64,000 nucleotides of DNA from Candidatus Latescibacterota bacterium. Lineage in GTDB: Bacteria; Latescibacterota; UBA2968. Under the pieces are notes generated by a model. It saw nothing but the letters and a program-made list of their open reading frames with translations. It was not told where the DNA came from and searched no databases. The stretch's first letter is position 1. Every line of letters begins with the position of its first letter. Positions 38,385-62,073 of the stretch are shown here, in pieces. The stretch lies in the NCBI GenBank assembly GCA_965222605.1, contig OZ244960.1, forward strand, positions 3,936,001-4,000,000. The letters run 5' to 3'. The translations under genes were made by a program, and so were the position numbers.

Positions 38385-38482
38385 GTAGGGGACGGTCCCC
38401 GTGCCGTCTCGTGTGTCATCGCGGCATGATTTTAGCCGCGATCCAGTGTTTTTGCCTGTCCATCCGTGTCCATCTGTGGTTG
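38385..38482. repeat. Nest of three different short palindromic/repeat elements
   Basis: GTAGGGGACGGTCCCCGTGCCGTC (GTAG REP), TGTCATCGCGGCATGATTTTAGCCGCGATCCAG (palindrome), and tandem GTCCATCCGT/GTCCATCTGT. Confidence 0.55.
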
Positions 38483-38487
38483 CTTTT

Positions 38488-41400: not shown

Positions 41401-43410
41401 GGAGATGACGAAACAGCACTTGAATGGGCAGAAAAAGCCAGTGAAGGTTTACAGCAAACATCGGGTATGTACACGGGCATATTGCCCCTGGTGTATTGTG
41501 GTATTGGCGTTGCTCTGGCTAAGGCAGGGCGGATTGCGGAGGCTGAACAGGCTTTTGAGCAGGCTATTGAATGCCGAAGAGAATCCAAAGGCGATCACTG
41601 GGCGCGTGCATCGCTGATGGCAGGAGAGTTTTATCTCGAGCGCGATGATATGACAAAAGCGCAAGAGTATCTCGAAGCGGCAAAACAGGCGTTTGAAGAA
41701 ATGGAAATGTCCTACTTTCTGAGGAGAACACAGATGTTATTCAGTCAATTATCTCACGACGAAGATGGTCGCGGCAGGGATGCCGTTCCAATGTTCCAAT
41801 CAGGTGAATCTTCTCGCGGTGAGGACTTGCCTGCTATCGTGCAAGCAGGTGCCGCATCTATTTCTGAGATTTCAGTCGATACGTTGTCCGTTGATCGCCT
41901 GCGCTTGCTTTACGAGGTGAGCCGAGAATTGACTACAGAGCGCGATCTCAAGGTGCTATTGGATCGAGTTTTGGGTAATTTGTTGACTGTCTATCCAGCA
42001 GCAGAGCGGGTGCTTGTTGCAATCAAAAATGAGGCTTCGCAAGGCTTTGTAGTTGATGCGATACGTCACCACAATGTAGAAGCAGATGATTTAGAAGAAT
42101 TGAGTGGGGGTATTATTCGTCGGGTTATTGAGACAAATGAACCTGTTTTGAGCATGGATGCCCAGACAGACGACAGGCTCAATTGGTACCAAAGTGTGAT
42201 CGACTACCACATTCGGTCTGTATTGTGTGTGTCCTTATTTCATGTTGAGGAAGGTGTTATCGGTGCATTGTATGTGGATCATCGCGGCATGGACAACGCA
42301 TTTTCTGATGAAGATCAGACGTTTTTACAGGCATTTGCGAATCTGGTGAGTGTGGCACTGGTCAATGCGAGGATGCACGAACAATTGGAAGAGAAAGCAC
42401 AATATTTGCAGCAAGAGGTCGAAAGACGGTACCAGCTTGGCGACCTGTTTGGACAAAGTGATGCAATGCAGATGGTTTACCAGTTTATCGAACGCGCTGC
42501 AAAGAGTGATATCCCCGTGCTTGTACAGGGCGAAACAGGTACGGGCAAAGAATTGGCTGCGCGTGCCATACACTACAATAGCATACGCAAAGACCAGCGA
42601 TTTTTGTCAGAAAATTGTGCTGCACTGTCACCTGAGTTGTTGCAGAGTGAGTTGTTTGGGCACAAAAAAGGCGCGTTTACTGGGGCGAATGAAGATCATA
42701 AGGGGATTTTTGAGGTTGCCAATGGGGGTACGGTTTTTTTAGATGAAATAGGTGATGCCCCGCCGCAGTTGCAAAGGAGTTTGTTGCGGGTGTTGCAAGA
42801 AGGTGAAGTACGGCGTGTGGGAGAAACTGTAGATCGTGCAGTAGATGTGCGCATTATTGCAGCGACCAATCGAGACTTAAAAAAAGAAGTTGAAAACGGT
42901 TCTTTCCGTGAAGATTTGTATTACCGGTTGCATGTGATTCAGATCGATATGCCGCCTTTGCGAGAACACCTTGAAGATGTGCCATTATTGGCAGAACATT
43001 TGCTCATTCGGGCAAAAGAAGAGTCAAACAAGTCGGTTGGAGGGCTGACAGTGGGTGCAATCAGGGCGCTTACAAGTTACGACTGGCCTGGCAATGTGCG
43101 CGAGTTGGAGAATGAGATTCGGCGTGCGGTTGCATTGGCAAAAGAAGAGGGAGATATTACGCCCGATTTGTTTTCAGAAGCTGTCGGGTACGCAGTGCCG
43201 GATGCTTCTGTCGAATACCACTTGCCTGCGCAGGCGGATGCCCGCACGCAAGCAGGAGGGCGTTTACAAGATCGTATGCAGGAGTATGAGAGACGGTTGA
43301 TTCGAGACGCACTTGAGAGATACAAGGGCAATATTACGCATACGGCTAAAGAACTGGGGGTGGCACGCATTAGCTTGTATAGAAAGATCAATCGTTTGGG
43401 GTTGAGGTAG
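38488..43410 (+). CDS. Ser/Thr kinase - AAA (STAND-like) - TPR - GAF - sigma54 activator - Fis HTH multidomain regulator
   Basis: GTGGMGEV/ALK/HRDLKPSN/DLG/MSPEQ; GEAGVGKT; TPRs; GAF (RSVLCV.L..IGALYVD); GETGTGKE, GAFTGA, FLDEIG, WPGNVREL; GNITHTAKELGVARISLYRK. Confidence 0.93.
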   Translation: MFKIGTIFDKRYQIQAHLGTGGMGEVYRVLDLDQDRECALKILNTMVDQKAAHRRFHREFQVLNRLQHPRLVRTHTWGFAEERPYFTMEYLPGKTLEKIIADQALLARFRASHFFALVQQLAEGLAYIHAQGAVHRDLKPSNIMVLETEEGIETTILDLGLAKFRHLHSVSITQTGATIGTAEYMSPEQGKGFWVDHRSDLYSLGVILYEVLTDAPPFSGQNPISVILKHIREIPPSMSEINIAVSEEIQQVVLKLLAKGAVDRYQSAEEVVRALPSGFVPSDDEQRDVPVKVMRPQFVGRESEMKTLHAMLHDVQAGEQRVVLISGEAGVGKTRLVEELLGDALIHDFLCLKGSGQEEGGQIYGALIDAFQRVKTTDLVGRVPDPVETDKFSVMERWLQLLKSLRQKQPIVLCLEDIQWLDELTLEFLQYVLRDPEPCPFLLCLTCRWSNLEPFSEEVENFIHSNEFAEATHIQLENLPQEEVGYLAASMLGERSIPSDALQALFRETGGQPLFVVEAMRTLVNVDVVRQNVSDDWQWGEFPETLLSDDISEVLYRRITALPAVQQRVLEYACVFLGDFSFELLAEIWRGDELELLDVLDDLVAEGLLTTYGDEKERYRFSQSLCRRAIYDRIQNVRRRLLHREIGNALEDTEDAEELTEELADHFAAAEEQDKAVKYMRLSGKKALAIQAYRQGLRRFEAVRDWTTNDAFESQADAIDFLCDYADVLRNCDQPNRALKLLEEAKALLPDDRNDLKARILNREGSIHSVLQHGAIAEEYMLEALRLYRELDDLDGEIQALGGLAYLCDVSGRHEEAIAYMRREIEKYATLGDAQNKAVLQRREGLFALVGFRFKTAKSHLEATVKTAQQLGLEYHQIWALNLLVRVYFYLGDLNRAEAVCYEVIGEWQKRGVIHLEAVNFLYLGELALERGDFAEALEYAEISAERFLETSRKDYVYRAYAISATAAARMGDDETALEWAEKASEGLQQTSGMYTGILPLVYCGIGVALAKAGRIAEAEQAFEQAIECRRESKGDHWARASLMAGEFYLERDDMTKAQEYLEAAKQAFEEMEMSYFLRRTQMLFSQLSHDEDGRGRDAVPMFQSGESSRGEDLPAIVQAGAASISEISVDTLSVDRLRLLYEVSRELTTERDLKVLLDRVLGNLLTVYPAAERVLVAIKNEASQGFVVDAIRHHNVEADDLEELSGGIIRRVIETNEPVLSMDAQTDDRLNWYQSVIDYHIRSVLCVSLFHVEEGVIGALYVDHRGMDNAFSDEDQTFLQAFANLVSVALVNARMHEQLEEKAQYLQQEVERRYQLGDLFGQSDAMQMVYQFIERAAKSDIPVLVQGETGTGKELAARAIHYNSIRKDQRFLSENCAALSPELLQSELFGHKKGAFTGANEDHKGIFEVANGGTVFLDEIGDAPPQLQRSLLRVLQEGEVRRVGETVDRAVDVRIIAATNRDLKKEVENGSFREDLYYRLHVIQIDMPPLREHLEDVPLLAEHLLIRAKEESNKSVGGLTVGAIRALTSYDWPGNVRELENEIRRAVALAKEEGDITPDLFSEAVGYAVPDASVEYHLPAQADARTQAGGRLQDRMQEYERRLIRDALERYKGNITHTAKELGVARISLYRKINRLGLR

Positions 43411-47973: not shown

Positions 47974-49344
47974 ATGAAAATTTGTGTAGTTGGTTTGGGC
48001 CATGTTGGCACTGTGAACATTGCCTACTTGCTTGAACGAGGTCATATCGTCACAGGCTTGGATGTCTCCCAGGAAAGAATCCGCCATCTTTTTGCCGGTG
48101 AACCTGAACCAGAACCCCGCGTAAGCGACCTGCTAAGTTCAGCACTTAGAAGTGGGAGGCTCCAGCTTTCGACTGACTACTTCAAAGCTGTCGAGGAGGC
48201 GAGTGTAGCGATCATCTGTGTAGGTACGCCGCAAGGGGAGAAAGACGGAATACCAAATCTGAGTTTTCTTTATCAGGCCGTAACGTCACTGGTTGAGATA
48301 GTCAACAAGAAAAAAGGCACGTTCGACGTAGTTCTGCGCAGCACTGTTCCGCCCGGGACGACGCGTAATATCGTCTCTGGAGCCTTCGGGAATTTTGGCA
48401 ATGTCTGGTATTACCCGGAGTTCTTGAGAGAAGGAAGCGCAATTGAGGACATGAATGATCCCCCGATACGGATCGTTGGTGCTCCAAAGACTGGTTATTG
48501 TCAGCGCGTGTTAGATATTTACGGTGAGACTGGGCCAGTGTACATTACCGAATACGAAATAGCTGAAATGGTGAAGTATGTATGCAATGCTTTTCATGCC
48601 ATGAAGGTTACTTTCACGAATGAGATATCGAATGTTTGCAGATATCTCGGGATAGACAGCAATAGAGTAATGGAGGTAGTGTGCTCAGACAACAAGCTCA
48701 ATATGTCAAAAGCCTACATGAGGCCGGGATTCGCATTCGGAGGATCCTGTCTCCCGAAGGATCTTACAGCACTCCTGCGGCTATCGAACGGACGACAAGA
48801 ACCCGAATTGCCTCTGCTGACCAATATCATTGTCAGTAATGATCTTCATATCAGATCCACGGTAAGGAGGGTAAGGTCACTTGCCGTTCGAGGAACATTG
48901 GGTATGTTGGGTTTGAGTTTTAAGCCCAATACAGGCGACTTGAGGGATAGTCCGTTCGTAAAACTCGGAAACATGCTCATCTCAGAAGGGTACCAGGTAA
49001 TCGCATATGACCCTTCAGTAGAGTTAGGTCTCCTGGATGTAGGGCAGACTTATATTCAAAGCGATGCCAGAAAGATCTGGCAGGGACAATTGGCCAAATC
49101 CCTCAATTCGCTATGTGAGTGTTCTCTACTTTTGATCGCACATCCCATTTCTTCATTTCATACACCGATTTTACCCATCTTGAAGGGCAAGCATGTTCTT
49201 GATTTGTGCAACGATCCTTTGCGAGAGCAAATCGCTGCTATTGCTGACTATGAAGGTGTGGGCTGGGAATCCCGTTCAGGATGTGTTCGGAATGTAAGCT
49301 TGGCAAAGGCTGAAGAAGCGTTAAAGAACACGTCATATTCATAA
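47974..49344 (+). CDS. UDP-glucose/GDP-mannose 6-dehydrogenase family
   Basis: VVGLGHVG, ICVGTP, RSTVPPGTT, PEFLREG, KY.CNAFHA.K, PGFAFGGSCLPKD, GLSFKPNT.DLR.SP. Confidence 0.95.
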   Translation: MKICVVGLGHVGTVNIAYLLERGHIVTGLDVSQERIRHLFAGEPEPEPRVSDLLSSALRSGRLQLSTDYFKAVEEASVAIICVGTPQGEKDGIPNLSFLYQAVTSLVEIVNKKKGTFDVVLRSTVPPGTTRNIVSGAFGNFGNVWYYPEFLREGSAIEDMNDPPIRIVGAPKTGYCQRVLDIYGETGPVYITEYEIAEMVKYVCNAFHAMKVTFTNEISNVCRYLGIDSNRVMEVVCSDNKLNMSKAYMRPGFAFGGSCLPKDLTALLRLSNGRQEPELPLLTNIIVSNDLHIRSTVRRVRSLAVRGTLGMLGLSFKPNTGDLRDSPFVKLGNMLISEGYQVIAYDPSVELGLLDVGQTYIQSDARKIWQGQLAKSLNSLCECSLLLIAHPISSFHTPILPILKGKHVLDLCNDPLREQIAAIADYEGVGWESRSGCVRNVSLAKAEEALKNTSYS

Positions 49345-49426
49345 AAAAGCCGCCGACAGACCCTGGCAAGTCGAGTGTCGGCGGCAGACTGCAGTTCAAA
49401 GCTCAAGCATTTGGGAATGTGAGCTT
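49343..49426 (-). ncRNA. Candidate structured small RNA / modular repeat, copy 1
   Basis: Minus-strand TTGACA (49462-49457)-N18-TATCTT (49438-49433), then hairpin AAGCTCA..TGAGCTT, then GC stem GCCGCCGACA..TGTCGGCGGC with a T-tract; repeated at 56886 and 59897. Confidence 0.55.
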
Positions 49427-49488
49427 GATAGTAAGATATCTTTTGAGGGGCAGGTTGTCAACCATCGTGCAATCGGATATAAAAATTT

Positions 49489-49782
49489 ATGGCAAAAAAC
49501 ACAATAACAATACCTGAGATTGAGAATCAGATTCAAGATTTGGTCCTGAAGGCATTAGATCATGAAGTCACATCTGATAATATAGATTGGAGCGATCTTC
49601 TTTTGATTTCTATACTTGATTCTGTCTCTATCATGGCCCTGGTGACAGGCTTAGAGGATACATTTGACGTGGTCGTAGAGGACGAAGAACTCACAGAAGA
49701 AATGCTAACTTCGACACGTTCGGTAGCGAAGTATATATATGAAAAATTAGCCACTGATGCACATTCGCTCGCTCTCGAATAG
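49489..49782 (+). CDS. Acyl carrier protein
   Basis: Acidic, about 97 aa, ILDSVSIMALV..LEDTFDVVVEDEEL with the phosphopantetheine Ser in the DS motif. Confidence 0.85.
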   Translation: MAKNTITIPEIENQIQDLVLKALDHEVTSDNIDWSDLLLISILDSVSIMALVTGLEDTFDVVVEDEELTEEMLTSTRSVAKYIYEKLATDAHSLALE

Positions 49783-49819
49783 ATCAACGCCAGAAACTAA
49801 CACTGTGAAAGGTTTTTTG

Positions 49820-51724
49820 ATGGAGCATTTTTTTTCTAATTTGACAGGTACAGGTACCCGGGTAGGCGTCATTGATAGCGGTTTTAATACGGGTAAAAAA
49901 AACGTGCATGTGTTGAATGGTACCAGTTTCTGTAATGGCGATGCCCAACCAGATTCAAATTACAAAGATATGATCGGCCACGGAACAGCATGTATTGGCG
50001 TCATCCACACTAAAGTTCCCAATGCAGAATTTTTGCCTGTCAAAATTTTTGAGTCAGAGTTGATAACGACAATGGACATTTTGTGCAAGGCGATTTACTG
50101 GTGTGTTAAACATCAATGTCACATTATCAATTTGAGTTTAGGCACTCTCGATGAGAGCAATAGCGATGTTTTGAAGGAGGCCTGTGATTTTGCATACAAA
50201 CACCATACGTTCATTGTTGCTGCGACATCAAATGATGGACAACCGAGTATTCCCGCGTCTTTTCCCAATGTCTTTGGCGTAGCAGGAGGAAAAGTAGCTG
50301 GAAAATTTGATTACTTTTATGACCCACACGAAAAAATACAGTTTGTCGCACGGGGTGATCGTCAACGTCTGAATTGGCTGGAAGGCAAACAGATATTTAT
50401 GGGTGGATCGAGCTTTGCGGCTCCGCATATTTCTGGCTTGATTGCTCTGATAATAGAGAAATATGGTGGTATCACGCTCAACGATCTGACAGAAATTTTG
50501 AAGCTGCACTCCTTAAGCCAATGTCCCAAGCTGGTAGATAGTAGCACTTATGCGATGAGCGGGATGCCCAGATCTCGCTCAGACGTTTCTATCCGAGACC
50601 TAAATAAGGCAAATACGCCAGGCTGGATAGAAGAGGCTGTTGTTTTTCCATATAACAAAGAAATGCATGGGTTGGTGCGGTTTCGGGAGTTATTGCCATT
50701 TAGGATTACAAGAGTAGTTGACGTTGTTGGAAAAAGAACCATAGGTAAAGATTGTGGGGAGGTTATTGGGGGAGCCGAATCTAATTTGATCATACAACAA
50801 AATTTGGAAGACTGTCTGCAATACGGCGATACGCTCGTTTTGGGTTATTTGGATGAAATTAGCCGGATTAAGAAACGCGATGTGTTACAAGAATCTCTAA
50901 AATTGGCATTGAAGCATAACAAGAACGTTTACAGTCTCAGCCCCATTGCAAATAATCAATACGAAAGCATAAGTAAAGCCTTTAAAGAAAAACATCTGCA
51001 TTGTGCAGCACCAACCATAGATTTTGCAACTTATGAGGCTTTGATCAAAACTTATGATTGGAGAAACAGAAGCCAGAAACCTATCGTGGGCATATTTGGA
51101 ACAGGACCGCAACAAGGCAAGTTCACTGCTCAATTGGCACTGAGAAAACAATTACAGAAAATTGGCTATAAAGTTGGTCAATTGGGCACAGAACATCAAT
51201 CAGCGTTATTTGATTTCGATTTTACATTTCCAAATGGATATGATGGACATCGGAGTATCCAAATCCCCATGGATTTGCACATTCCACTTCTAAATTCTGC
51301 TATGGTCGGTATCGAACAATCAGACCCGGATATTATCGTTGTTGGTGGTCAGTCCGGTATCATACCTCATAGCTTTTACGAAAAATCTCAGAGTTATACT
51401 TTGCCCTCATTGATCTTACTCTTTGGAACTGTTCCCGATGCATATATCCTGCTCGTTAATTCTATCGACGAACCTGAATTTATACAGGAAAATATCCGGG
51501 TGTTAGAGAGCTTCGGGAAGGGCAAAGTGATTCTCCTTGTTTTCAGTGATAAGAAAAAAATTGTTAATGACACTGTTAATACAGTCGTCAACCAGCCGCT
51601 TTTTAGAGAGGAAATTTGTCAAACGATATTGAGTTTGGAATCAATGCATCGCATTCCAGCTACTGAGATAATTAGCGCAGAAGGACGAAAAAAGATGGCT
51701 GATATTGTTATTGATTTTTTCTGA
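49820..51724 (+). CDS. Subtilisin-like S8 peptidase fused to a DUF1611-like P-loop domain
   Basis: Triad VIDSG / GHGTAC / GSSFAAPH; C-terminal VGIFGTGPQQGKFTAQL, LGTE, DIIVVGGQSG, PDAYIL; no signal peptide seen. Confidence 0.82.
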   Translation: MEHFFSNLTGTGTRVGVIDSGFNTGKKNVHVLNGTSFCNGDAQPDSNYKDMIGHGTACIGVIHTKVPNAEFLPVKIFESELITTMDILCKAIYWCVKHQCHIINLSLGTLDESNSDVLKEACDFAYKHHTFIVAATSNDGQPSIPASFPNVFGVAGGKVAGKFDYFYDPHEKIQFVARGDRQRLNWLEGKQIFMGGSSFAAPHISGLIALIIEKYGGITLNDLTEILKLHSLSQCPKLVDSSTYAMSGMPRSRSDVSIRDLNKANTPGWIEEAVVFPYNKEMHGLVRFRELLPFRITRVVDVVGKRTIGKDCGEVIGGAESNLIIQQNLEDCLQYGDTLVLGYLDEISRIKKRDVLQESLKLALKHNKNVYSLSPIANNQYESISKAFKEKHLHCAAPTIDFATYEALIKTYDWRNRSQKPIVGIFGTGPQQGKFTAQLALRKQLQKIGYKVGQLGTEHQSALFDFDFTFPNGYDGHRSIQIPMDLHIPLLNSAMVGIEQSDPDIIVVGGQSGIIPHSFYEKSQSYTLPSLILLFGTVPDAYILLVNSIDEPEFIQENIRVLESFGKGKVILLVFSDKKKIVNDTVNTVVNQPLFREEICQTILSLESMHRIPATEIISAEGRKKMADIVIDFF

Positions 51725-51755
51725 GATCAAGACCTCAATGATAGGGAAAAAGTAA

Positions 51756-52478
51756 ATGCCAGAAATTCGGAAAATGTCGCTGATTTTAAATATCCTGCTG
51801 TCTGTTTTTATTTTGGTTGCGTTATTCGGGATATGGAAATTGAGAAATACGAACGCTCGTCATTGGGAAGAAATTAGAGAGCTTCGAAAAGTGAACGCAG
51901 ATTATAAGGAGCATATAAACGTCTCTACCTATGCCTCCAATTATCAAGGGCAAGAATTTCCGAAGTTGCAATTGGAGAATATAAATGGCGATTGGATTTC
52001 AACGGACTTTTCTAAAACAGGAAAAGGACTGGTTCTGGTCTTCAAGCCACAAGACTGTCAGCCCTGTTTAATCACGCAGATAAAGTTACTGGAGCATGTG
52101 TACCAAAATCAGGATCCCTCAAAACGCTTTCCAATTTATGCTTTTGCCAATGCTTCTGCAGAAGTGTTGAAAAAATTTAAAAAGAGTTTTGATCTCCATT
52201 ATGAATTGTTTCCGGATACAGAGAACATGTTATTCCAGGATAGAGTACTTACCCATCGTACCCCTGCTATCTTTGTTGTGAACAAAAAAAATATCATAAC
52301 GCATTGTCATTTTCCCTCAAAGGACCGCCCACAAAATACAGTCCTCTTTTTTGGTGTGATTCAAAGACATTTGCCTTTGCAAAAACCACTTCTGAACGAT
52401 CATCTTAAAGGGGTGACCTATTCGCAAATCATTGCCAAAGATTTTGATACTACTCCTTTATCTACATTTATTTATTGA
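51756..52478 (+). CDS. Membrane-anchored thioredoxin-fold (redoxin) protein
   Basis: N-terminal TM helix, FPKLQL, CQPC (CxxC), TPAIFVVN. Confidence 0.7.
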   Translation: MPEIRKMSLILNILLSVFILVALFGIWKLRNTNARHWEEIRELRKVNADYKEHINVSTYASNYQGQEFPKLQLENINGDWISTDFSKTGKGLVLVFKPQDCQPCLITQIKLLEHVYQNQDPSKRFPIYAFANASAEVLKKFKKSFDLHYELFPDTENMLFQDRVLTHRTPAIFVVNKKNIITHCHFPSKDRPQNTVLFFGVIQRHLPLQKPLLNDHLKGVTYSQIIAKDFDTTPLSTFIY

Positions 52479-52537
52479 TATTTATGAATAATATCTAGCA
52501 TGAAAAACATAGTAAAATATGTTGATTGTCAATACCA

Positions 52538-52592
52538 GAATGGTTTTACTTGAGCCTACCAAGTAAGGTATTCTTATGTGCATGCACATTTT
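52538..52592 (+). repeat. Leader motif shared with 57048-57109
   Basis: GAATGGTTTTACT..GAG..AGTAAGGT..TCTTATG..GCACA.TTT; TTACTTG/CAAGTAA hairpin. Confidence 0.6.
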
Positions 52593-52623
52593 GGCTTGAC
52601 TAAAAAGGAAAGGAGGTGATATT

Positions 52624-52848
52624 ATGAAAACTTTGACCAAACCTGTGAAGTCTCGGCTGTCTTCTCCGCGTATTTATGGATATGAAGATAATGGGGGTAA
52701 ATGGAAAGTCGATGGAACATCAATAGTTGAGTATGGGGATCCGGTTGAGACAACGTGGTACTACACTTACTTGGTGTGCGAGTCTGCGACCCAACCCTTC
52801 TGCACCGTAGGCGATTCAGAGACTAAAGCACGTAAAGTAGATCATTGA
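52624..52848 (+). CDS. Putative precursor peptide 2 (74 aa)
   Basis: Very strong AAAGGAGGTG RBS; basic leader MKTLTKPVK..RIYGY followed by a core with a C-x7-C pair. Confidence 0.7.
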   Translation: MKTLTKPVKSRLSSPRIYGYEDNGGKWKVDGTSIVEYGDPVETTWYYTYLVCESATQPFCTVGDSETKARKVDH

Positions 52849-53090
52849 TGTATAAATTCTGTGTTTGATAAAAAAGCAAAGTGTGCAACCATCTTGGTAG
52901 GCTCAAATTTCGTTCGGTGTTCTCGATAAATAGACCGGGGACACCGATTTGACGCTGTCAAAAATTTCAACGCCCTTTCTCATAATATCCGAGATATGGA
53001 AAAATACTGAATGATTATTTGAGTGGCGACTTTTACCGACTATATCACAGTTTTTATGCATACCCTTCATTAACAGGATATGGATAACCG

Positions 53091-55586
53091 ATGTTTTTAA
53101 GTTATTTCCGAACATGGTTTCGCAATATCCTCAAGTATAGAACCTATTCAGCCATTAACCTGCTGGGTTTGGGGATAGGAATTGCGTGCTGTTATCTGTG
53201 CGTGCTTTACCTCCTGTATGATTGGAGCTTTGATAGGTTTCACAAAGACCATCATCGCATATACGGCATTGCAGGAAAGGTAAAACACAGTAACGGAATA
53301 ATGGGGAACGGAATAATGGGGATCCCGTTGGCGGGTACATGGGCAGAAATAGCCAGATTTCCTGTTGTATTATCTTCCATGATTTCTGCCGAAGTTCCTG
53401 AGATTGAGACCACGACCCGTGTAAAGTGTGTCCTCGGGACAGCGACCTGGCAAGTAGGTACGCACAAAGAATTTTTGCGACCTATCCAAGAGGTTTTGTT
53501 CGTTGATAGGAGTTTTGGGGCGATGTTTTCCTTTCCTCTTATTCACGGCACGTTCTTCTCGCGACCAGGGCAAGTCGTGATCACACGTAGATTCGCTCAG
53601 ATACTTACCAACGATATTGACAGTTTGATTGGCAAAGTGTTATGGATGCGCGTTGCTTCTCGCAGGTTCGTGAAAGATCTGAAACCCGTATTAGCCCCTG
53701 TTGAAATAGGGGGCATCGTGGAAACCCCGCCCCGCAATTCGAGCCTGAATTTCGAGATTCTTTTGCCATTGAGTATATCCGCAACCTTTCTAAAAAAGAA
53801 AGAAGGCAGGTGGGATTGGCAATTTAGGTGTACACATTATATCCGTTTGACAGATGAAGCAGATGTGGAGGCAGTAGAGAGAAAACTCACGGCGTTCATG
53901 CAGAAGCAGTCCTCTTTCAACTCGCTATGGGATTTAGAGACCTTTCAGGCTAAATTGCAACCCATCACAGAATTGCACCATTATAGAGGTCCGTTTATTG
54001 ATGGTGTGTTCCGCTACACGAATCCCTTATATGGATATATTCTCGGCGGTATCAGTGTATTGGTTCTGGTTATCGCGTGTTTGAATTACGTGCTCCTCTA
54101 TGTGGGGCGGTTCAACTCGCGTACCAAAGAATTGGGCATAAGGCAAATCTTTGGAGCGAGCCGCAGGCACCTCAGGTACCAACTCCTGGTCGAATGCTTT
54201 GGATACAGTCTATTAGCGTGCATCTTAGGCTTGGCAGTCGCAGAGTTGGCATCAAGTCCTCTTGAAGGTGTTTTACGGATTCCTTTCACGTCTTCGGTAG
54301 ATCCCATTCAGACCGCGATTGTTCTCCTAACACTGGCATGTCTGATAGGTCTGGTCACAGCCTTTTACCCAGCAGCCTTTATGTCGTCTGTGTCTGCCCT
54401 CAGCGTTTTGAGCAAAACAGCAAAGGCCGTCGGTTCTGGACTGTTCTTAAAGATATTGATGGCTATCCAGTCCGGTGTGACTTTAGTCTTTGTGTTTTGC
54501 ACGATCATTATCTTCGAACAGACTTTTTTTGTCATCACGGCAGAGCCGGGTTTTGAACCAGCGAATTTGGTCAGGATCAATACCAGTGGGTTGACAGAAA
54601 ATGAGATCAACCGTCTGCAAGCGTCCTTATCTGCATCTCCTCTCGTGACATCCTGTGTGCGGACGAACTTGCCCTTCGGATGGTCAAATGCAATCTTGAT
54701 GAAAGACAGCAGTGATAAACTCATTGATAACATAACCTATTATCAGGTGAAGGGGCCTTTTCTCGAGACCGTTGGGTTGCAACTCGTAAAGGGGAGAACC
54801 TTGCATCCCAACCCCATGCCCGGCGATGTGATCGTGAATGAAGCTTTCCAAAAGCACCTAACATCGCCACAGCCTCTTGGACAGGTGATCACGCAGGCGG
54901 ATACAAAGTTTAGAAGACCCGTGTTTAGCAGCGATGTGAGTGGTCGCATAGTCGGTGTGGTTAAGAATTTTCACGTTAGAAACTTGCGCCACACCGTCCC
55001 GCCGACCATCATCACGATTGCCCCGGATGATGCAACAACTAAGCGACAAGACCTAGAAATATTGATTCGGATTCGAGAAGGTAGTGCGGAAACCTTTGGT
55101 GCGTATCTCAAGGGACTGTGGCAAGACCTCAAAAAGGAGCATCACCTGACGTTTTCCTTTGTAGAAGATGACAGGCGACATTTTTATGCTAAAGAGATCA
55201 ATTGGAGCAAGATCGTCTCTGGCGCGGCCCTGTGCGCTGTCTTCATCGCGTCAATGGGTGCTATGGGCATGATCTCGCTATCCGTGGCTCGCAGAAGAAA
55301 GGAAATAGCCATCCGAAGGGTCATGGGTGCCGTGCCGTCTAAAATAGCCAGTGAGATTGTGTTGAACTACGCGCTGCCCGGGTTTATAGCCGCCGTCATC
55401 GCGCTGCCGCTGTCTTATTTATTTATCCAAGAATGGCTCTCGATATTTGCCTACCGCTTTCAATTTGGGGTTGGGACTATTTTGGTGACGCTCTTATTGG
55501 GTATTCTGCTTCCACTGATATGTGGTTTCGTACACGCGCTAAAGGTGGCTTCTGCAAATCCAATAGATGCCCTTCGAGAGGACTGA
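53091..55586 (+). CDS. MacB/FtsX-like ABC transporter permease (divergent)
   Basis: INLLGLGIG, ACLNY, RTKELGIR..FGAS, RRKEIAIRRVMGA, NPIDALRED. Confidence 0.88.
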   Translation: MFLSYFRTWFRNILKYRTYSAINLLGLGIGIACCYLCVLYLLYDWSFDRFHKDHHRIYGIAGKVKHSNGIMGNGIMGIPLAGTWAEIARFPVVLSSMISAEVPEIETTTRVKCVLGTATWQVGTHKEFLRPIQEVLFVDRSFGAMFSFPLIHGTFFSRPGQVVITRRFAQILTNDIDSLIGKVLWMRVASRRFVKDLKPVLAPVEIGGIVETPPRNSSLNFEILLPLSISATFLKKKEGRWDWQFRCTHYIRLTDEADVEAVERKLTAFMQKQSSFNSLWDLETFQAKLQPITELHHYRGPFIDGVFRYTNPLYGYILGGISVLVLVIACLNYVLLYVGRFNSRTKELGIRQIFGASRRHLRYQLLVECFGYSLLACILGLAVAELASSPLEGVLRIPFTSSVDPIQTAIVLLTLACLIGLVTAFYPAAFMSSVSALSVLSKTAKAVGSGLFLKILMAIQSGVTLVFVFCTIIIFEQTFFVITAEPGFEPANLVRINTSGLTENEINRLQASLSASPLVTSCVRTNLPFGWSNAILMKDSSDKLIDNITYYQVKGPFLETVGLQLVKGRTLHPNPMPGDVIVNEAFQKHLTSPQPLGQVITQADTKFRRPVFSSDVSGRIVGVVKNFHVRNLRHTVPPTIITIAPDDATTKRQDLEILIRIREGSAETFGAYLKGLWQDLKKEHHLTFSFVEDDRRHFYAKEINWSKIVSGAALCAVFIASMGAMGMISLSVARRRKEIAIRRVMGAVPSKIASEIVLNYALPGFIAAVIALPLSYLFIQEWLSIFAYRFQFGVGTILVTLLLGILLPLICGFVHALKVASANPIDALRED

Positions 55587-55715
55587 TATGAAAATTTGCT
55601 TCTGTTCGGTAAAAAAACAGTGTGCTACCGATCTTAATAGGCCGCAACTTGACTTGGTGTTCTCGGTAAACAGGCCGGGAGTACCGAGCCTATGATAAGG
55701 AAAGGATGATGATTT

Positions 55716-56807
55716 ATGAATCGCAAAAAGTTATTGGTTTCCGTGAGATGGCTGACACTCCTCCTTTTGATCTGTGGAAGTTGCCAAAAAAGTACTGTTG
55801 AAAACCAGCAAGATGGGGTCGCTCTCAAGGTGCAAGCACAAGGTGCCCAACTTTCATTGATTGATGCCATTACCCTTGAACGGTCAGAGGCAAGGCCAGC
55901 TCTCGGACGTGTCCGTTCCATTACTGTTTTGGAGAACTATATCATTATTGTAGATGCCATGAGAGAAAGTGTCGAAGTTTTTGACAAGGAGGGCAGCTAT
56001 AAGTGGTCTATTGGTAGTCGCGGGGATGGAGAAGGTCAGTACAAGAGCCCGAGCGAGCCAACAATTATCCCCAATACCGACCAAATGCTGATCTATGATG
56101 GGGGGCAGGTGCTTATCTTCTCGATTCAAGGAGAATTTTTAGGGCAGGTAAAGCTGCCAGAGAGACGCTTTATTAATCGCATGGCGGTTTCTGATGAGCA
56201 CAATCTCATTCATACTTATCTTGACAAAAACCAAAACGGTATGCTTTGTGTCACCTCCCTTGAAACTGGTGAAGACCTCGCCAAGTTCAAAGTTAGCGAG
56301 TCTCAATACGAACACTTATTTTTTGGTTTGCAGAGTTTCCAAGGGCTTGCTTATGACGAGATACAGAGAATGATATATTTTGCCTTGCCCTGGGAAGAGA
56401 AGGTTATGCGAATTGATTTGGCAACACAGGAATTTTTGACCCCCATAGTCATAAATCATCCCAAATTTGTCAGCCTCAAATTAGATGAAATAGATGATAG
56501 CAAAGATATTAGAGAATTATCCCAACACAGGTTCAGCAGATTGAACAGCATGTATCTCTTGTCTTCGAGCGATATTTTGCTCAATTACCAGTTCTGGGAT
56601 TCGTCAATGAGTACCGCGCTTATACTTTTATCAGGCTTGGATATGCAGCCATCGGCGCAAGAAGTGAAAAATGAATTGGGGTACAATATTTTTACTTGTT
56701 ATGGAAAATCTATATATATGTATTCGTCTTCCACTGATGGCGAAGATACAAATGGGAGAATTCGTGTCTATCGTCTGACGGAACCTCAAGAAGCCCCTAC
56801 CGGATAG
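55716..56807 (+). CDS. 6-bladed beta-propeller (NHL/TolB-like) lipoprotein
   Basis: CGSC lipobox, VFDKEG.Y..SIGSRGDGEGQY..P, IFS..GEFLG. Confidence 0.78.
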   Translation: MNRKKLLVSVRWLTLLLLICGSCQKSTVENQQDGVALKVQAQGAQLSLIDAITLERSEARPALGRVRSITVLENYIIIVDAMRESVEVFDKEGSYKWSIGSRGDGEGQYKSPSEPTIIPNTDQMLIYDGGQVLIFSIQGEFLGQVKLPERRFINRMAVSDEHNLIHTYLDKNQNGMLCVTSLETGEDLAKFKVSESQYEHLFFGLQSFQGLAYDEIQRMIYFALPWEEKVMRIDLATQEFLTPIVINHPKFVSLKLDEIDDSKDIRELSQHRFSRLNSMYLLSSSDILLNYQFWDSSMSTALILLSGLDMQPSAQEVKNELGYNIFTCYGKSIYMYSSSTDGEDTNGRIRVYRLTEPQEAPTG

Positions 56808-56885
56808 TGGTGAGAGTCAGGCCGTGTTCGAGTGTCTCTTTATCACAAAGTTAAAATTGAAGTGGCAAAAGTGTTAATATAAATA

Positions 56886-57041
56886 GCCGCTGATATACCT
56901 TGGCAAGTCGAGTGTCGGCGGTAAGAACAGTGTACAACCGCTGGCTGGCAATCCCTGATAGATTCGGGCGGTGTACAACTGCGCACGCGTAGCACAACGT
57001 CAGTATAGCAGTTCAAAGCTCAAGCATTTGGGAATGTGAGC
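56886..57041. repeat. Modular structured repeat, copy 2 (about 85-nt insert)
   Basis: GCCGCTGATATACCTTGGCAAGTCGAGTGTCGGCGG ... GCAGTTCAAAGCTCAAGCATTTGGGAATGTGAGC. Confidence 0.8.
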
Positions 57042-57133
57042 ATGAGAGAATGGTTTTACTTTTACTGGAGTCCATCGAGTAAGGTGCGTCTTATGCATAC
57101 GCACACTTTAAGTTATTTACATTACGGGTGAAT

Positions 57134-58906
57134 ATGAAAAAAAAAATTAACAAATTCATCTCAGCAACTTTTTATATCTCTAAGAATAGACATGTCTTTT
57201 ATCATTTTTTAAAATTTCTGAAACCTTATTGGGTACAGCAAAGCGTTGTTTTCGTTCTCATGCTCTTGGGGACTGTTAGCTCGCTGGCCTTTCCTTATAT
57301 CATGAAAATTATTATTGATGACGTGTTTCCAAACAAAGACTATGAATTATTTATATTTATTTTGCTTCTGCTCTTGGGCATTACAGTAGGTAATATCATT
57401 ATTGGTTTTTGTTCAAACTATTTATTTTCTTGGATAAACAATCGCATTATGCTGGATATAAGGAGCCATCTTTTTGACCACTTAATCCAGTTGCCATTGA
57501 GCTTTTATGATCGCAATAAATCTGGGGATATTGTTTATAGAATGAGCAACGAAGTGGATAGGATACAGTCGTTTATCACTTCGAGTGCTTTGAATCTTAC
57601 GCATAGCTTGTTGACACTCATAGGGCTTACTGTGGTTCTCTGCTGGTTGAACTGGCAACTCTTCTTGGCTTCTATTATTGTGATACCCTTTCTGGTACTC
57701 AATATTCGCTATTTCCAGCCTAAAATAAGAGATATTACAGAACGAGGACGAAAGAAAGGCTCTGAAGTTATGAGCTATTTGATTGAGCGATTTGAGACTG
57801 TCCAATTGATTCAGGTCTATAATGCCTATAATTATGAAAACAATAGATTGTGGTCGCAGCTAAATGATCTTCTGGATATCAATATGCAAAATGTAACCTA
57901 TTCTGGCGTGATGAGATCGATTTCGAGATTTTTCACATCCCTGACACCTGCGATCATTTTGGGCTGGGGAGGCCACAAAGTCATGTTGGGCGTCATAAGC
58001 TTGGGGGCATTAGTCGCTTTTTTGCAATACCTGTCGCGCCTTTTTGAACCATTTAGAAATCTCAACCATCTTTATGTAGAACTTATCCGTGTATCTGTTT
58101 CAATGAAGCGGGTATTCGAGTTTCTCGAGATTGATATTCAGGAATGGTCCGACTCGTCTGTCACCCGTCCTTTTTCTTTTGAAAAGGAGATAGCGTTTAC
58201 CGACCTCAATTTTGGATATAACGGACAACCCGTTTTGCAGGACTTCAGCTTGAGACTTGAGAAAGGAAAAAAATATGCTCTGGTAGGGTCAAGCGGTTGT
58301 GGCAAGAGTTCATTGGTAAATTTGCTGTGTCGTTTTTATGAATCGAATACAGGTGCGATTACTATTGATCACATACCGATTACCCATATCAAACTGTATG
58401 ATCTGAGAGAGCATATTGGTCTGGTAACTCAGGAAAATCAAGTTTTTCATGATACAATCTGGGACAATATCCGATACAGCAAGCCGAACAGTACGCCTGA
58501 AGAGGTCCATAGAGCGATCAGGATAGCTGGTTTGGATGGATTTATTGAGAAGGCTGAAGATGGTGCGCTTACGCTTGTCGGTGATCGCGGGAACACACTT
58601 TCGGCTGGTCAAAAGCAGCGTATTGCCATTGCGCGTGCAATTTTGAGAGACTCGGATATTTTGATCCTGGATGAAGCTACGTCGGCACTGGATTCTGAAA
58701 GCGAAGGTGAAATTATAGCAAATTTACAGGATCTATATGAAGATAAAACGATGATTGTGATTAGCCACAGACTCAGCACGATCCAGCAGGTAGATGAGAT
58801 TATCTGTTTGGATGAGGGGAGAGTTGTGGAGCAAGGAGCACATGAAGAGTTGTTGGAGAAGAAGGGACATTATTGGCGTCTTTTTCGCAAGCAACTTATC
58901 GCATAG
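57134..58906 (+). CDS. ABC exporter, fused permease/ATPase, no C39 domain
   Basis: 6-TM ABC membrane domain, GSSGCGKS, LSAGQKQR, ILDEATSALD, ISHRLST. Confidence 0.95.
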   Translation: MKKKINKFISATFYISKNRHVFYHFLKFLKPYWVQQSVVFVLMLLGTVSSLAFPYIMKIIIDDVFPNKDYELFIFILLLLLGITVGNIIIGFCSNYLFSWINNRIMLDIRSHLFDHLIQLPLSFYDRNKSGDIVYRMSNEVDRIQSFITSSALNLTHSLLTLIGLTVVLCWLNWQLFLASIIVIPFLVLNIRYFQPKIRDITERGRKKGSEVMSYLIERFETVQLIQVYNAYNYENNRLWSQLNDLLDINMQNVTYSGVMRSISRFFTSLTPAIILGWGGHKVMLGVISLGALVAFLQYLSRLFEPFRNLNHLYVELIRVSVSMKRVFEFLEIDIQEWSDSSVTRPFSFEKEIAFTDLNFGYNGQPVLQDFSLRLEKGKKYALVGSSGCGKSSLVNLLCRFYESNTGAITIDHIPITHIKLYDLREHIGLVTQENQVFHDTIWDNIRYSKPNSTPEEVHRAIRIAGLDGFIEKAEDGALTLVGDRGNTLSAGQKQRIAIARAILRDSDILILDEATSALDSESEGEIIANLQDLYEDKTMIVISHRLSTIQQVDEIICLDEGRVVEQGAHEELLEKKGHYWRLFRKQLIA

Positions 58907-58909
58907 GGA

Positions 58910-59419
58910 ATGGAACTGGTGAGTGTAGAATTTCGCAATCCTGACATAAAATTAGTTCTTCTGCGTGCATTGGTTATTCAAATTTTGGGAATAGGCGCAG
59001 GATTGATTTATACTGTTATTTTTAGTGAACAGCTTTTGTTCGGCGAGGTTGAAACCTTTGAAAAACAAGATGATATAACGTATGTCTCTTTAGAGGCACT
59101 TCAAAATGTAATTCAATCGAAATCAAAAATACTACTCATTGATGGACGATCTGAATCAGCTTATCACGAAGGCCATATTCCAGGGGCTGTGAACGTACCG
59201 TATATTCAGCGTGATTATTTTTTTAAAAAACTTTTGGCTGATATTGCCCGCGAGACACCAATAATTGTCTATTGTTCCGGAAAGAATTGTAATACCAGTG
59301 TCAAATTGGCGAGGTCTCTGTCAGGGGAATTTGGATTTATACATGTTCGAGTTTTTAAGGGAGGATGGGAGGAATGGGTAAAGGGTGAAAATCCGATTCA
59401 AACGAGTTTTGACAGATGA
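58910..59419 (+). CDS. Membrane-anchored rhodanese-like domain protein
   Basis: IDGRS..Y.EGHIPGAVNVP, VYCSG..C, FKGGWEEW. Confidence 0.88.
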   Translation: MELVSVEFRNPDIKLVLLRALVIQILGIGAGLIYTVIFSEQLLFGEVETFEKQDDITYVSLEALQNVIQSKSKILLIDGRSESAYHEGHIPGAVNVPYIQRDYFFKKLLADIARETPIIVYCSGKNCNTSVKLARSLSGEFGFIHVRVFKGGWEEWVKGENPIQTSFDR

Positions 59420-59883
59420 TTATACCTTCTAAATTAGCATGGATAGGAACCGTGATCCGGATATTTCTGGGGGTTATTCTCGGATGGGCTGGGGTTGTAA
59501 AAATCCGTAATCCTGAAGCATTTATTAAAATTGTGAGAGCCTACAATTTGCTACCTGAGGAATTGGGCGTGCTATGGGGAATTTTCTTGCCCTGGATTGA
59601 GCTTGTGACAGGTTTATTTTTAATTTCAGGTTTGTGGCACAAGAGTGCTGTGCTCAGTAGCTCTGGTCTTTTTTTAGCATTTGCAGCAGCAGTCGGCATT
59701 AATATTCTCCGCGGTGCAGATATCGCCTGTGGTTGTTTTGGGTTCAATGACACCAATTTGTATGTTGTGTTGTTCCAGGCCCTGGTCTTCTTGCTTTGCT
59801 GTTATTTTTTGTTTTTTCTGAAATCTACACCTTATTCTATGGACCATTGTCTTTTTACTTCTCAAAGAGGTGGACTTTCGTAA
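59416..59883 (+). CDS. MauE/DoxX family redox-associated membrane protein
   Basis: RIFLG....AG..KI, LPWIEL..G, RG.DIACGCFG. Confidence 0.88.
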   Translation: MIIPSKLAWIGTVIRIFLGVILGWAGVVKIRNPEAFIKIVRAYNLLPEELGVLWGIFLPWIELVTGLFLISGLWHKSAVLSSSGLFLAFAAAVGINILRGADIACGCFGFNDTNLYVVLFQALVFLLCCYFLFFLKSTPYSMDHCLFTSQRGGLS

Positions 59884-59896
59884 AGTATTCCCATGC

Positions 59897-60002
59897 AAAA
59901 TCCGCTGACAGGCCCTGGCGAGTCGAGTGTTGGCGGCAGACTGCTATCCCCGCATGAGGTAAGCAGGGGCAGTTCAAAGTGCAAGCATTTGGGAATGTGA
60001 GC
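59897..60002. repeat. Modular structured repeat, copy 3 (about 25-nt hairpin insert)
   Basis: CCGCTGACAGGCCCTGGCGAGTCGAGTGTTGGCGG ... GCAGTTCAAAGTGCAAGCATTTGGGAATGTGAGC. Confidence 0.8.
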
Positions 60003-60115
60003 GTGACCAATTCAAAATATCTAATTATGGTAGTAGAAGGATAGTTGTGTGCCTCGAAGAACTAAGATCAGCATAAAATTTTAATGTATGGCCAATATCA
60101 ACTCATTTAAGAGGT

Positions 60116-61393
60116 ATGGTTTTGAGAACAGTTTTGATGATCACACAAAAATTTCCTCCTTTTAATGGTGTTGGGATTCTGCGGGTTACCAAATTCGTGA
60201 AGTATATTCAGGAGTTTGGATGGCGACCTGTTGTTCTGACTTGCAAACGAAAAGAAAATCATTTAGACGCTGTGGATGAAAAACTGTTAGATGGTGTTCC
60301 GAAAAATTTAAGCATTCATCGGGTAAATGCCCCTTCCCTGTACGACGTTTACAGACTAATAGGCGGACGGGCAAAACAAGGCTCTTTTTCTTTGTCTAAA
60401 AATTCTCTGGCTACTTTAATCCGATCCTTATTTGTACCTGACCAATATGTCGCCTGGTATTTTACGGGTGTACGTAAGGCGAAAGAGATTTTCCAGGTGG
60501 AGAATATAGACGCGATCTATTCTACATCTCCTCGTGAAACATCACATCTGATTGGACGAACGCTCCATCTAAAATATAAGTGTCCTTGGATAGCCGATTT
60601 TAGGGATCCCTGGATCGAGAAACAACACCGTCCAAAACGTATCCAGCCTCTCGAACAGTTCGAGAAGTACTTAGAAAAAATTGTGCTTCGCGATGCAGAT
60701 TGCATTCTTGCTGCCTGGCCCGGTATTGTCCGAAGTTTTGAGCCTGCTGTAGAGGAGAAATCGCAAGTTTTGACTAATGGATTTGATGAAGAAGACTTCA
60801 GAGGTCTAAAGCCTCATGTGTTCCCAAAATTCACTTTTTTGTATGCCGGATCACTTTTTAAAGAATTGTCACCCCTACCAATGTTCGAAGCATTGGATAT
60901 GCTGCTGCGAATACGTCCAAAACTACGACAAAGAATTCAATTGGTCCTCTTGGGAAGGCAAGATGCATTTATTCGAGATACGATAACAAAATACGAGTTG
61001 GAATCTTGTGTACATATCATCCCACAAATACCGCACAGAGAATGTTTGCAGTACATATTGGGAGCTGATGTATTGACTTTTTCTGTACCAGATAAACAGT
61101 GGATCCCCAGCAAAATTTTTGAGTACTTAAGAGCCAGCAGACCCATACTGGCAATAGCAGACCAGGATTCAGACGCTGTACAGATTATCGCGCGTGTAAA
61201 CCAGGGTTTATGTTTCGCAAGCCGAGATCCTGAGCATATAGCACGTTATATGTCAAATTTAGTGCGAAATCGCGAGGTTTCGGATTGTGGGATTCAAAAC
61301 AATAGGCAACTCTGGGAGTTTGAACGAAGACAGTTAGCAAAACAGCTTGCTCATACCCTTGATACGCTCGTCAATCAGGTTTATAGGAAATGA
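60116..61393 (+). CDS. Glycosyltransferase family 4
   Basis: FPP..G.G..R..KFVKY, STSP, PWIADFRDPW, TNGFD, YAGS, PSKIFEYL. Confidence 0.9.
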   Translation: MVLRTVLMITQKFPPFNGVGILRVTKFVKYIQEFGWRPVVLTCKRKENHLDAVDEKLLDGVPKNLSIHRVNAPSLYDVYRLIGGRAKQGSFSLSKNSLATLIRSLFVPDQYVAWYFTGVRKAKEIFQVENIDAIYSTSPRETSHLIGRTLHLKYKCPWIADFRDPWIEKQHRPKRIQPLEQFEKYLEKIVLRDADCILAAWPGIVRSFEPAVEEKSQVLTNGFDEEDFRGLKPHVFPKFTFLYAGSLFKELSPLPMFEALDMLLRIRPKLRQRIQLVLLGRQDAFIRDTITKYELESCVHIIPQIPHRECLQYILGADVLTFSVPDKQWIPSKIFEYLRASRPILAIADQDSDAVQIIARVNQGLCFASRDPEHIARYMSNLVRNREVSDCGIQNNRQLWEFERRQLAKQLAHTLDTLVNQVYRK

Positions 61394-62073
61394 ATCGTAT
61401 AAATAAAATGTTAAGAGTGTTGTGTGCCCTGAGTTTTCTCATAGTACTATTACCGCTCGTGATCTTGGGCATTGTATTGATCTGGATAGAGACGCGGGAT
61501 AGATGCTTGTTCAAGCAAATCCGAGTGGGAAAAAACTTAAGACCCTTTACCATTTATAAACTTAAAACCATGATTGATCGTAAAAAAGCAGATCGAAATG
61601 ATCTCTTCGTGGATAATGAAAAATATATTACCAAAAGTGGACGTTTGCTCAGGATGTCAAAGATTGACGAAATACCGCAACTTTGGAATATCATCAAGGG
61701 GGATATGGATTTTGTGGGTCCGAGGCCGATAAGAGAACCACTACATAATTTTTATATGAAAAATATCCCAAACTTTGAACTCCGATACCAAACTTTACCC
61801 GGCCTTACGGGAATCTCTCAAATTGTAGATCCTGAGAATACAGATCGCAGTCTCGGCCTATCTTGTGACTGTTACTACATCAATAACAAATCTGTAAAAT
61901 TAGATGTTCAGATCATTGTATCGACGATCGTATATTTGATGTACAGTCTATCACGAGAAATTTACAACTGGACAACTGCAAGATGGCTCAGGCGTATCAA
62001 TGAGGATAATATATCCAACATTCAAGCTGATAATTTGCAGTATATGAGTTTGTCAAAATGGAAACGTCAATGA
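61390..62073 (+). CDS. Bacterial sugar transferase (phosphoglycosyl transferase)
   Basis: FKQ.RVG, YKLKTM, SKIDEIPQLWNI.KGDM.FVGPRP, PGLTG.SQ. Confidence 0.92.
   Translation: MNRINKMLRVLCALSFLIVLLPLVILGIVLIWIETRDRCLFKQIRVGKNLRPFTIYKLKTMIDRKKADRNDLFVDNEKYITKSGRLLRMSKIDEIPQLWNIIKGDMDFVGPRPIREPLHNFYMKNIPNFELRYQTLPGLTGISQIVDPENTDRSLGLSCDCYYINNKSVKLDVQIIVSTIVYLMYSLSREIYNWTTARWLRRINEDNISNIQADNLQYMSLSKWKRQ

Follow-up and report, generated by a model that had tools for sequence, protein, structure and literature searches.

A candidate antisense small RNA and its promoter-less derivatives at the gene-block junctions of a Latescibacterota gene cluster

Three copies of a modular repeat element lie between co-directional genes in a 64,000-nucleotide stretch of the genome of a Candidatus Latescibacterota bacterium (GenBank assembly GCA_965222605.1, contig OZ244960.1, positions 3,936,001 to 4,000,000). 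This whole stretch is hereafter called the window, and coordinates are those of the window unless stated otherwise. Comparison with related genomes leads us to regard copy 1 as probably the gene of a cis-encoded antisense small RNA of about 84 nt acting on the operon mRNA, and copies 2 and 3 as derivatives of it that lack a promoter. The three copies and the genes that flank copy 1 are the following.

47974-49344, plus strand: gene of the UDP-glucose/GDP-mannose dehydrogenase family, upstream of copy 1, with its stop codon at 49342-49344
49344-49432, plus strand: copy 1, intergenic
49489-51724, plus strand: open reading frame (ORF) of 97 aa and gene for an S8 protease fused to DUF1611_C, downstream of copy 1
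56881-57049, plus strand: copy 2, intergenic
59896-60010, plus strand: copy 3, intergenic

All three copies are oriented like the genes between which they lie, and each stands ahead of a block of genes, as the first-pass annotation of this DNA had noticed: copy 1 precedes the 97-aa carrier-like ORF and the S8 protease gene, copy 2 an ABC exporter gene, and copy 3 a GT4 glycosyltransferase gene. The PP-binding match of this 97-aa ORF is weak (E 0.0021) and does not reach the cut-off. Ahead of the dehydrogenase gene lie genes for a radical-SAM protein and a DUF354 protein, together with an ORF without a Pfam match. Between copies 1 and 2 the S8 protease gene is followed by genes for an AhpC-like protein, a MacB/FtsX permease and a beta-propeller protein, along with a 74-aa ORF. 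The ABC exporter, a rhodanese and a MauE/DoxX protein are encoded between copies 2 and 3, and the GT4 enzyme and a sugar transferase after copy 3. Directly upstream of the cluster (38401-43410) is encoded a 1669-aa protein combining a Ser/Thr kinase, AAA-16, TPR, GAF and a sigma-54 activator with a Fis-type helix-turn-helix.

The modular build that had been proposed, with a module A, a linker and a module B, is borne out in each copy. In module A (hairpin A) a GC-rich stem of 10 bp and an inner GAC/GTC helix carry a loop of 8 nt, CCTGGCAA, and there is a GAG bulge. Module B begins with the single-stranded GCAGTTCAAAG and continues as a bulged hairpin, AGCTC-AA-GCATT-TGGG-AATGT-GAGCT, whose loop is TGGG. 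The linker between the modules measures about 5 nt in copy 1, about 85 nt in copy 2 and about 31 nt in copy 3.

49349-49385: hairpin A of copy 1, resembling an intrinsic terminator on the minus strand together with the T-run 49348-49343
49391-49428: module B of copy 1, single-stranded GCAGTTCAAAG and then hairpin B
56886-56922, plus strand: hairpin A of copy 2, derivative without a promoter
56923-57007, plus strand: insert of copy 2, 85 nt, part of which is a dispersed short repeat
57008-57045, plus strand: module B of copy 2
59901-59937, plus strand: hairpin A of copy 3, derivative without a promoter
59938-59968, plus strand: insert of copy 3
59969-60006, plus strand: module B of copy 3

Both blastn with the three copies and a covariance model (R1) built from 23 copies of the A-linker-B element recovered the same three copies, and these only, from the whole source genome (G000; 6,338,376 bases in one contig, 51% G+C), so that the repeat is not a matter of chance. 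A degenerate 21-mer scan yielded about 12 matches in other phyla, which is about the chance expectation, by our own estimate, in the 596 billion bases covered. No Rfam covariance model matched the interval 48000-61500 on either strand at E up to 1. Many scattered copies, named in the first-pass annotation as the mark of an ordinary miniature inverted-repeat transposable element (MITE), are not what the genome holds: the copies share one 11-kb stretch and one orientation, and dispersal of the MITE or repetitive extragenic palindrome kind was not seen, with two members of a wider family as the only additions. In the alignments the two ends of the homology (the A-run on the left, a few bases past hairpin B on the right) show no inverted relationship to each other, no formal search for terminal inverted repeats having been made. 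The MITE reading was rejected on these three grounds, namely too few copies, a single orientation and ends that are not inverted.

Copy 1 differs from copies 2 and 3 in what lies beside it on the minus strand. The first-pass annotation had noted here a minus-strand promoter and a T-tract, and both are present; the spacer, given there as 18 nt, measures 17.

49433-49461, minus strand: promoter TTGACA-N17-TATCTT of the predicted antisense RNA, agreeing with 10/12 consensus positions
49343-49426, minus strand: predicted antisense small RNA of copy 1, about 84 nt, its start placed 7 nt downstream of the -10 hexamer

Read on the minus strand, TATCTT ends 6 nt ahead of the complement of module B. 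The predicted RNA would consist of a 5' hairpin (the complement of module B), a single-stranded spacer of 13 nt, and a terminator hairpin (the complement of module A) followed by U6. The A-run at 49343-49348 is a T-run on this strand, which gives a GC-rich 10-bp stem with its inner helix and then the six U residues, and the predicted 3' end (49343-49348) falls at the stop codon of the upstream dehydrogenase gene. This RNA folds with -33.4 kcal/mol (z -3.62). The plus strand folds about equally well (z -3.11), because any pair of hairpins must fold on both strands.

Whether such a promoter is an ordinary one in this genome can be judged from its tRNA genes. A TTGACA-type promoter (at most one mismatch in the first hexamer) was found within 120 nt upstream of 26 of the 49 tRNA genes, compared with 99 of 5000 random windows, and the sites at tRNA genes carry the same TAnnTT second hexamers. 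These counts indicate that TTGACA-N16-18-TAnnTT is the ordinary housekeeping promoter type of G000. It differs from the TTTG/TAnnTTTG type known from Bacteroides.

The relatives tie the promoter to one kind of copy. There are 24 strong R1 matches (above 65 bits). Of 21 genomes in the genus, 8, including G000, have them, in one region per genome; 10 genomes from 5 further genera of the family gave none. We call class 1 the copy that stands before the carrier and S8 genes, and class 2/3 the remaining copies. Among 22 cluster copies examined, a count that omits two copies of genome G002 whose module B missed the anchor, an exact TTGACA-N16-18-TAnnnT follows 8; all belong to class 1, which has 9 members, and each of the 8 genomes contributes one. 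The ninth, an extra copy in genome G007, has had its right flank replaced and is without the promoter. The same pattern follows 0/13 class-2/3 copies, and in the window no minus-strand promoter was found at copies 2 and 3.

Rates of change separate the two classes as well. Between species, class-1 copies are identical at 73-75 of 75 module positions (97-100%), and orthologous class-2/3 copies at 58-68 of 75 (73-91%); within the window, module identity to copy 1 is 92% for copy 2 and 89% for copy 3. At four-fold sites, G000 and the other genomes are 71-88% identical in four neighbouring genes, about 78% overall, and 58-65% in the permease gene; the rows for g9 against G017 and G005, with 15-16 sites only and a faulty alignment, were dropped. 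This comparison indicates that class-1 copies, promoter hexamers included, are under strong purifying selection. The pattern of class 2/3 is star-like, as expected of copies that drift from a frozen master at roughly the synonymous rate, slightly slower if anything. In contigs of related strains, the listed best-supported differences near copy 1 include three in the promoter spacer (49439, 49451 and 49455), and none of those listed, with 2421 more beyond the list, falls in the hexamers or in the RNA.

When the proteins of the window were mapped onto the matching regions of the relatives, the copies were always gene-oriented and stood at junctions of conserved gene blocks, and synteny was found to break at them. 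G007 (L021:10136-11249) has a sulfotransferase gene between two class-1 copies, and G017 carries a tandem duplication of about 4.4 kb that comprises propeller gene, permease gene and copy. Permease and propeller genes do not stand in one order in all genomes, the DNA left of the class-1 copy is unrelated to that of G000 in 6 of 7 comparisons, and some relatives are without a copy at certain junctions. Contigs of related strains likewise break at copies, and at 85-95% likeness some of them link one copy to another, a hint only given their short sides; contigs of this kind would fit the differing gene order in relatives.

Weaker matches of R1 led to a wider family. They consist of hairpin A with a different second hairpin, TCTCAAG-N7-CTTGAGA (A+B' members), and a profile built from them aligns with the full length of copy 1 and its flank as well. 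We collected 44 distinct sequences. The profile finds two paralogues in G000.

G000:C1:2343309-2343465 (L101): A+B' paralogue with hairpin A, another 5' hairpin and the same minus-strand promoter
G000:C1:418293-418443 (L102): A+B' paralogue with hairpin A, another 5' hairpin and the same minus-strand promoter

R2, a model built on the minus-strand RNA of this family (its E-values are rough), has a match in 17 of 20 genomes of the genus (G000 included), with 1-7 matches per genome, and in 0 of 131 genomes sampled from 45 other genera of the phylum. It finds copy 1 on the minus strand with 49.6 bits (E 2.7e-6); copies 2 and 3 are not among its matches at E up to 0.001. The exact promoter pattern is present in 38 of the 44 sequences, with a spacing of 17 and a second hexamer of TAYYTT or TATTTT, and the spacer sequences differ between subfamilies. 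By these searches, the RNA family to which copy 1 belongs is a new one, limited to a single genus.

Members of the wider family keep characteristic company. The neighbour survey comprised 35 rows, 10 of them the same place fetched twice, and thus 25 distinct places with 1-1.5 kb of flank. At 20 of these 25 there is a co-oriented response-regulator gene with an AraC-type DNA-binding domain, 208-303 nt downstream in 16 places and just upstream in 4; the other 5 have none within the fetched flank. Both G000 paralogues lie 220-340 nt upstream of such a gene; one has a HlyD-like gene after it, the other an ABC exporter gene before it. At the cluster itself, 6 of 8 genomes have a response-regulator/AraC gene whose end lies immediately ahead of the first copy, and G000 and G017 are without one. 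A third response-regulator/AraC paralogue of the source genome (G000:C1:910770-911459; 43% identical) has no RNA unit upstream; a dispersed repeat stands about 220 nt upstream of it instead.

The first-pass annotation had noted stem differences that retain pairing as G.U on the plus strand, which would argue for an RNA of that strand. Such pairs exist, and hairpin A of copies 2 and 3 has three of them each. Across 14 class-2/3 copies of 8 genomes, G.U cells favouring the plus strand number 24, compared with 8. This count misleads because the cells share ancestry: when distinct column changes are counted in the same 14 copies, 14 transitions favour the plus strand and 13 the minus strand, so that the G.U argument for a plus-strand RNA fails. 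In the wider family, where 99.6% of cells of the alignment are paired, the terminator pair 46-74 reads on the minus strand U-A in 20 sequences, U.G in 13 and C-G in 1, and this pair, a single one, leans to the minus strand. The strongest evidence as to strand that the sequences offer is the minus-strand promoter.

Copies 2 and 3 carry several further features. Their inserts had been described as hairpins in their own right, a description we cannot uphold, as they fold no better than shuffled sequences (z -0.26 and -0.36 on the plus strand, +0.71 and -1.70 on the minus strand). Positions 56968-57016, within the linker insert of copy 2, are a member of a separate dispersed short repeat with the core GCACAACGYCAGTA, many copies of which have GTCATTGCGGCATGG...GCCGCCACGC ahead of the core. 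It occurs at about 20 other places in G000 (for example genome positions 312621, 3808500, 5625282 and 910525), and a 20-mer search with up to 4 mismatches gave 23 places. After class-2 copies, in the window (57046-57110) and in relatives, there are two more conserved plus-strand hairpins, TACTTGAGCCCATCAAGTA and GTGCGT...ACGCAC, and after these ACTTTAAGTTnTTTACAT stands immediately ahead of the next gene.

On the plus strand, hairpin A is followed by AGACTGCAG, TAAGAACAG and AGACTGCTA in copies 1, 2 and 3, none of which has a U-run, and the scan found no terminator-like site on this strand at the three copies. A plus-strand attenuator or intrinsic terminator was rejected on both counts, and with it the attenuator family that had been offered as one explanation of the repeat. 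A plus-strand promoter for copies 2 and 3 was likewise rejected: only motifs with 2 mismatches were present, and these are not conserved in the class-2/3 copies of relatives. Some class-2/3 copies (for example those of L023) have the octamer GGCGGTAG in hairpin A, within its 3' arm, where pair 6-42 became G.U; the corresponding arm of copy 2 in the window reads GGCGGTAAG (56916-56924). This octamer, identical to the core of the enterobacterial ops element, was ascribed to chance, since the whole genome has one NusG match only, in the usual place and with no paralogue. Processive antitermination of the ops/RfaH, LoaP, UpxY or EAR kind was rejected in view of the single NusG and the lack of an Rfam match. 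A sigma-54 reading of the TGGCA in the loop of hairpin A was dropped as well despite the sigma-54 activator gene upstream, the -12 GC not lying at the right distance by eye; no formal scan was made.

The counter-transcript of roughly 85 nt that had been proposed for the repeat is thus plausible, on comparative grounds, for copy 1 only, and does not extend to all three copies as genes of such an RNA. A phage or plasmid origin, suggested at the same time, is not supported: blastn gave no match in 72,556 plasmid and 50,697 phage records. If copy 1 is indeed an antisense RNA gene, its product would be read on the minus strand from the housekeeping-type promoter and would end at hairpin A and U6, being fully complementary to the operon mRNA between the dehydrogenase gene and the carrier/S8-protease genes. 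We infer that it pairs with this mRNA, and the duplex would then be cleaved, or the stability of the downstream message altered. In addition, a strong promoter that faces upstream about 30 nt ahead of the carrier gene could cause head-on collisions with polymerases entering the carrier/S8 block. Copies 2 and 3 would have been left at gene-block junctions by duplication or recombination and would now evolve at a roughly neutral rate.

Several observations weigh against an antisense RNA gene at copy 1 with inert derivatives beside it. Among the 24 runs listed, none is recorded as RNA. A simple terminator scan calls none at copy 1, because its loop limit of 3-8 excludes hairpin A. Covariation is thin: in 500 shuffles of the cluster alignment, the observed number of paired cells was reached in 37 and the covariation score in 120, and the wider family has no more than 2 pairs with a change on both sides, as the stems hardly vary. 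Copies 2 and 3 are about 85% alike between species as against about 78% at four-fold sites, and class-2/3 modules are almost free of insertions and deletions although the linkers differ wholly; these two copies may therefore be under weak constraint. Finally, 31 of the 44 family members have, by a loose pattern, a plus-strand motif, TTGnnn-N17-19-TAnnAT, a few bases before hairpin A, so that a sense RNA may be the working partner. The motif also precedes the class-1-type copies of G007a, G011a and G020, and was not found at copy 1 of the window. If it is real, the ancestral unit would have been a pair of convergent promoters about 110 bp apart, with a sense RNA starting at the 3' end of the antisense RNA; in the window, by contrast, sense transcription would come from read-through out of the genes upstream.

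These points bear on other explanations of the repeat. One is that all three copies are leader, processing or stabilising hairpins of the sense mRNA before sub-operons, the minus-strand promoter of copy 1 being an add-on. It would suit the fact that every copy is intergenic and gene-oriented, and the plus-strand motif of relatives (TTGAAA-N18-TATCAT) would place the transcription start at hairpin A or about 10 nt ahead of it; the pairing of hairpin A kept through plus-strand G.U in copies of the 2/3 type (24 cells against 8) and the conserved plus-strand hairpins after class-2 copies speak for it too. We nevertheless consider it unlikely, given that the strand bias shrinks to 14 against 13 as distinct changes, that class 2/3 drifts near the synonymous rate while class 1 is frozen, that hairpin A has neither a plus-strand U-run nor a terminator-like site after it, and that the single NusG has no paralogue. 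It is possible, if doubtful, that a single RNA serves three targets, the product of copy 1 binding copies 2 and 3 of the operon mRNA as well and thereby governing three gene blocks together. Apart from copies 2 and 3 there is no near-complementary site elsewhere in 6.3 Mb, and each of the two is on the strand of the mRNA; they keep 92% and 89% identity to copy 1, and their modules are without insertions and deletions next to variable linkers; yet the class-2/3 rate is near neutral, some junctions in relatives are without a copy, and tandem duplication alone would explain the shared orientation.

Far less credible is a reading of the copies as scars by which some small mobile or recombinogenic element marks cassette junctions, with no function as RNA. 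The synteny breaks at the copies (the G007 sulfotransferase gene, the duplication of about 4.4 kb in G017 and the swap in gene order) would be accounted for, as would, weakly, the related-strain contigs that join copy to copy (85% likeness, short sides). Against this, there are only 3 copies and 2 wider-family members per 6.3 Mb, the alignments reveal no terminal inverted repeats (by no formal search), and class 1, promoter hexamers included, appears strongly constrained. Nor do we give much credence to the idea that response-regulator/AraC proteins encoded nearby use the modules as DNA operators: there is physical linkage between the family and genes of this kind, but G000 and G017 keep copy 1 with no such gene in the cluster, module A is a long palindrome with a compensatory change, and AraC-type proteins usually read direct repeats. 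A broader scheme, in which a two-promoter switch cassette has been copied beside response-regulator/AraC genes and peptide-maturation operons, and one 84-nt RNA gates three sub-operons by way of copies 2 and 3, seems to us rather improbable.

Antisense RNAs encoded in cis are a known kind of regulator, and the antisense RNA predicted at copy 1 would be a further example of that kind. The nearest worked example is GadY of E. coli, which lies between gadX and gadW and is listed in a review table as inducing cleavage and stabilising the gadX mRNA (PMC5415839). GadY resembles the candidate in having its own promoter, on the opposite strand, in a gap between co-directional genes, and in its complementarity to the end of the upstream message. 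The two differ in that the copy 1 RNA has no sequence or structure match to GadY (the Rfam scan above), that GadY binds Hfq (same table of PMC5415839) whereas none was found in the G000 genome, and that here the promoter lies about 30 nt before the downstream gene and faces upstream, with promoter-less copies further along the operon.

Bacteroides and Latescibacterota are grouped in one superphylum, and a second point of comparison comes from the former. DonS RNAs of Bacteroides are described as cis-antisense RNAs of 78-128 nt at polysaccharide utilisation loci, which lower the expression of their locus (PMC7366714). On that description the likeness consists in a cis-antisense family that is linked to gene clusters and present as several paralogues in a genome. 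DonS-type RNAs are, however, encoded divergently to susC homologues, and here there are no susC or polysaccharide utilisation genes, the neighbours being the dehydrogenase and the carrier/S8 protease genes; the two families are set apart by this description, not by sequence. Copy 1 is a member of neither the GadY nor the DonS family.

Plasmid copy control offers a third comparison. In RNA I/RNA II of ColE1 and CopA/CopT of R1, the antisense RNA is short, rich in hairpins and equipped with a terminator of its own, and its complement lies in the 5' part of the sense transcript. Family members that carry the plus-strand motif would be similar, in that a sense RNA would start at the hairpin that ends the antisense RNA. 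Copy 1 differs, being chromosomal, with no replication genes, no plasmid or phage match, and, in the window, no plus-strand motif. RNA I/RNA II are listed among antisense RNAs in a table of PMC5415839.

For the study of such elements in general, the present case carries a caution, since G.U pairs in few copies pointed to the wrong strand until independent changes were counted. To our knowledge, Latescibacterota are known only from metagenomes, and our literature search found no regulatory RNA described for them. If our reading of copy 1 is true, it would provide a readable promoter consensus, TTGACA-N17-TAnnTT, and a handle on the control of a putative peptide natural-product cluster and of the response-regulator/AraC genes that accompany the family, and the RNAs described here would constitute the first small-RNA family for Latescibacterota.

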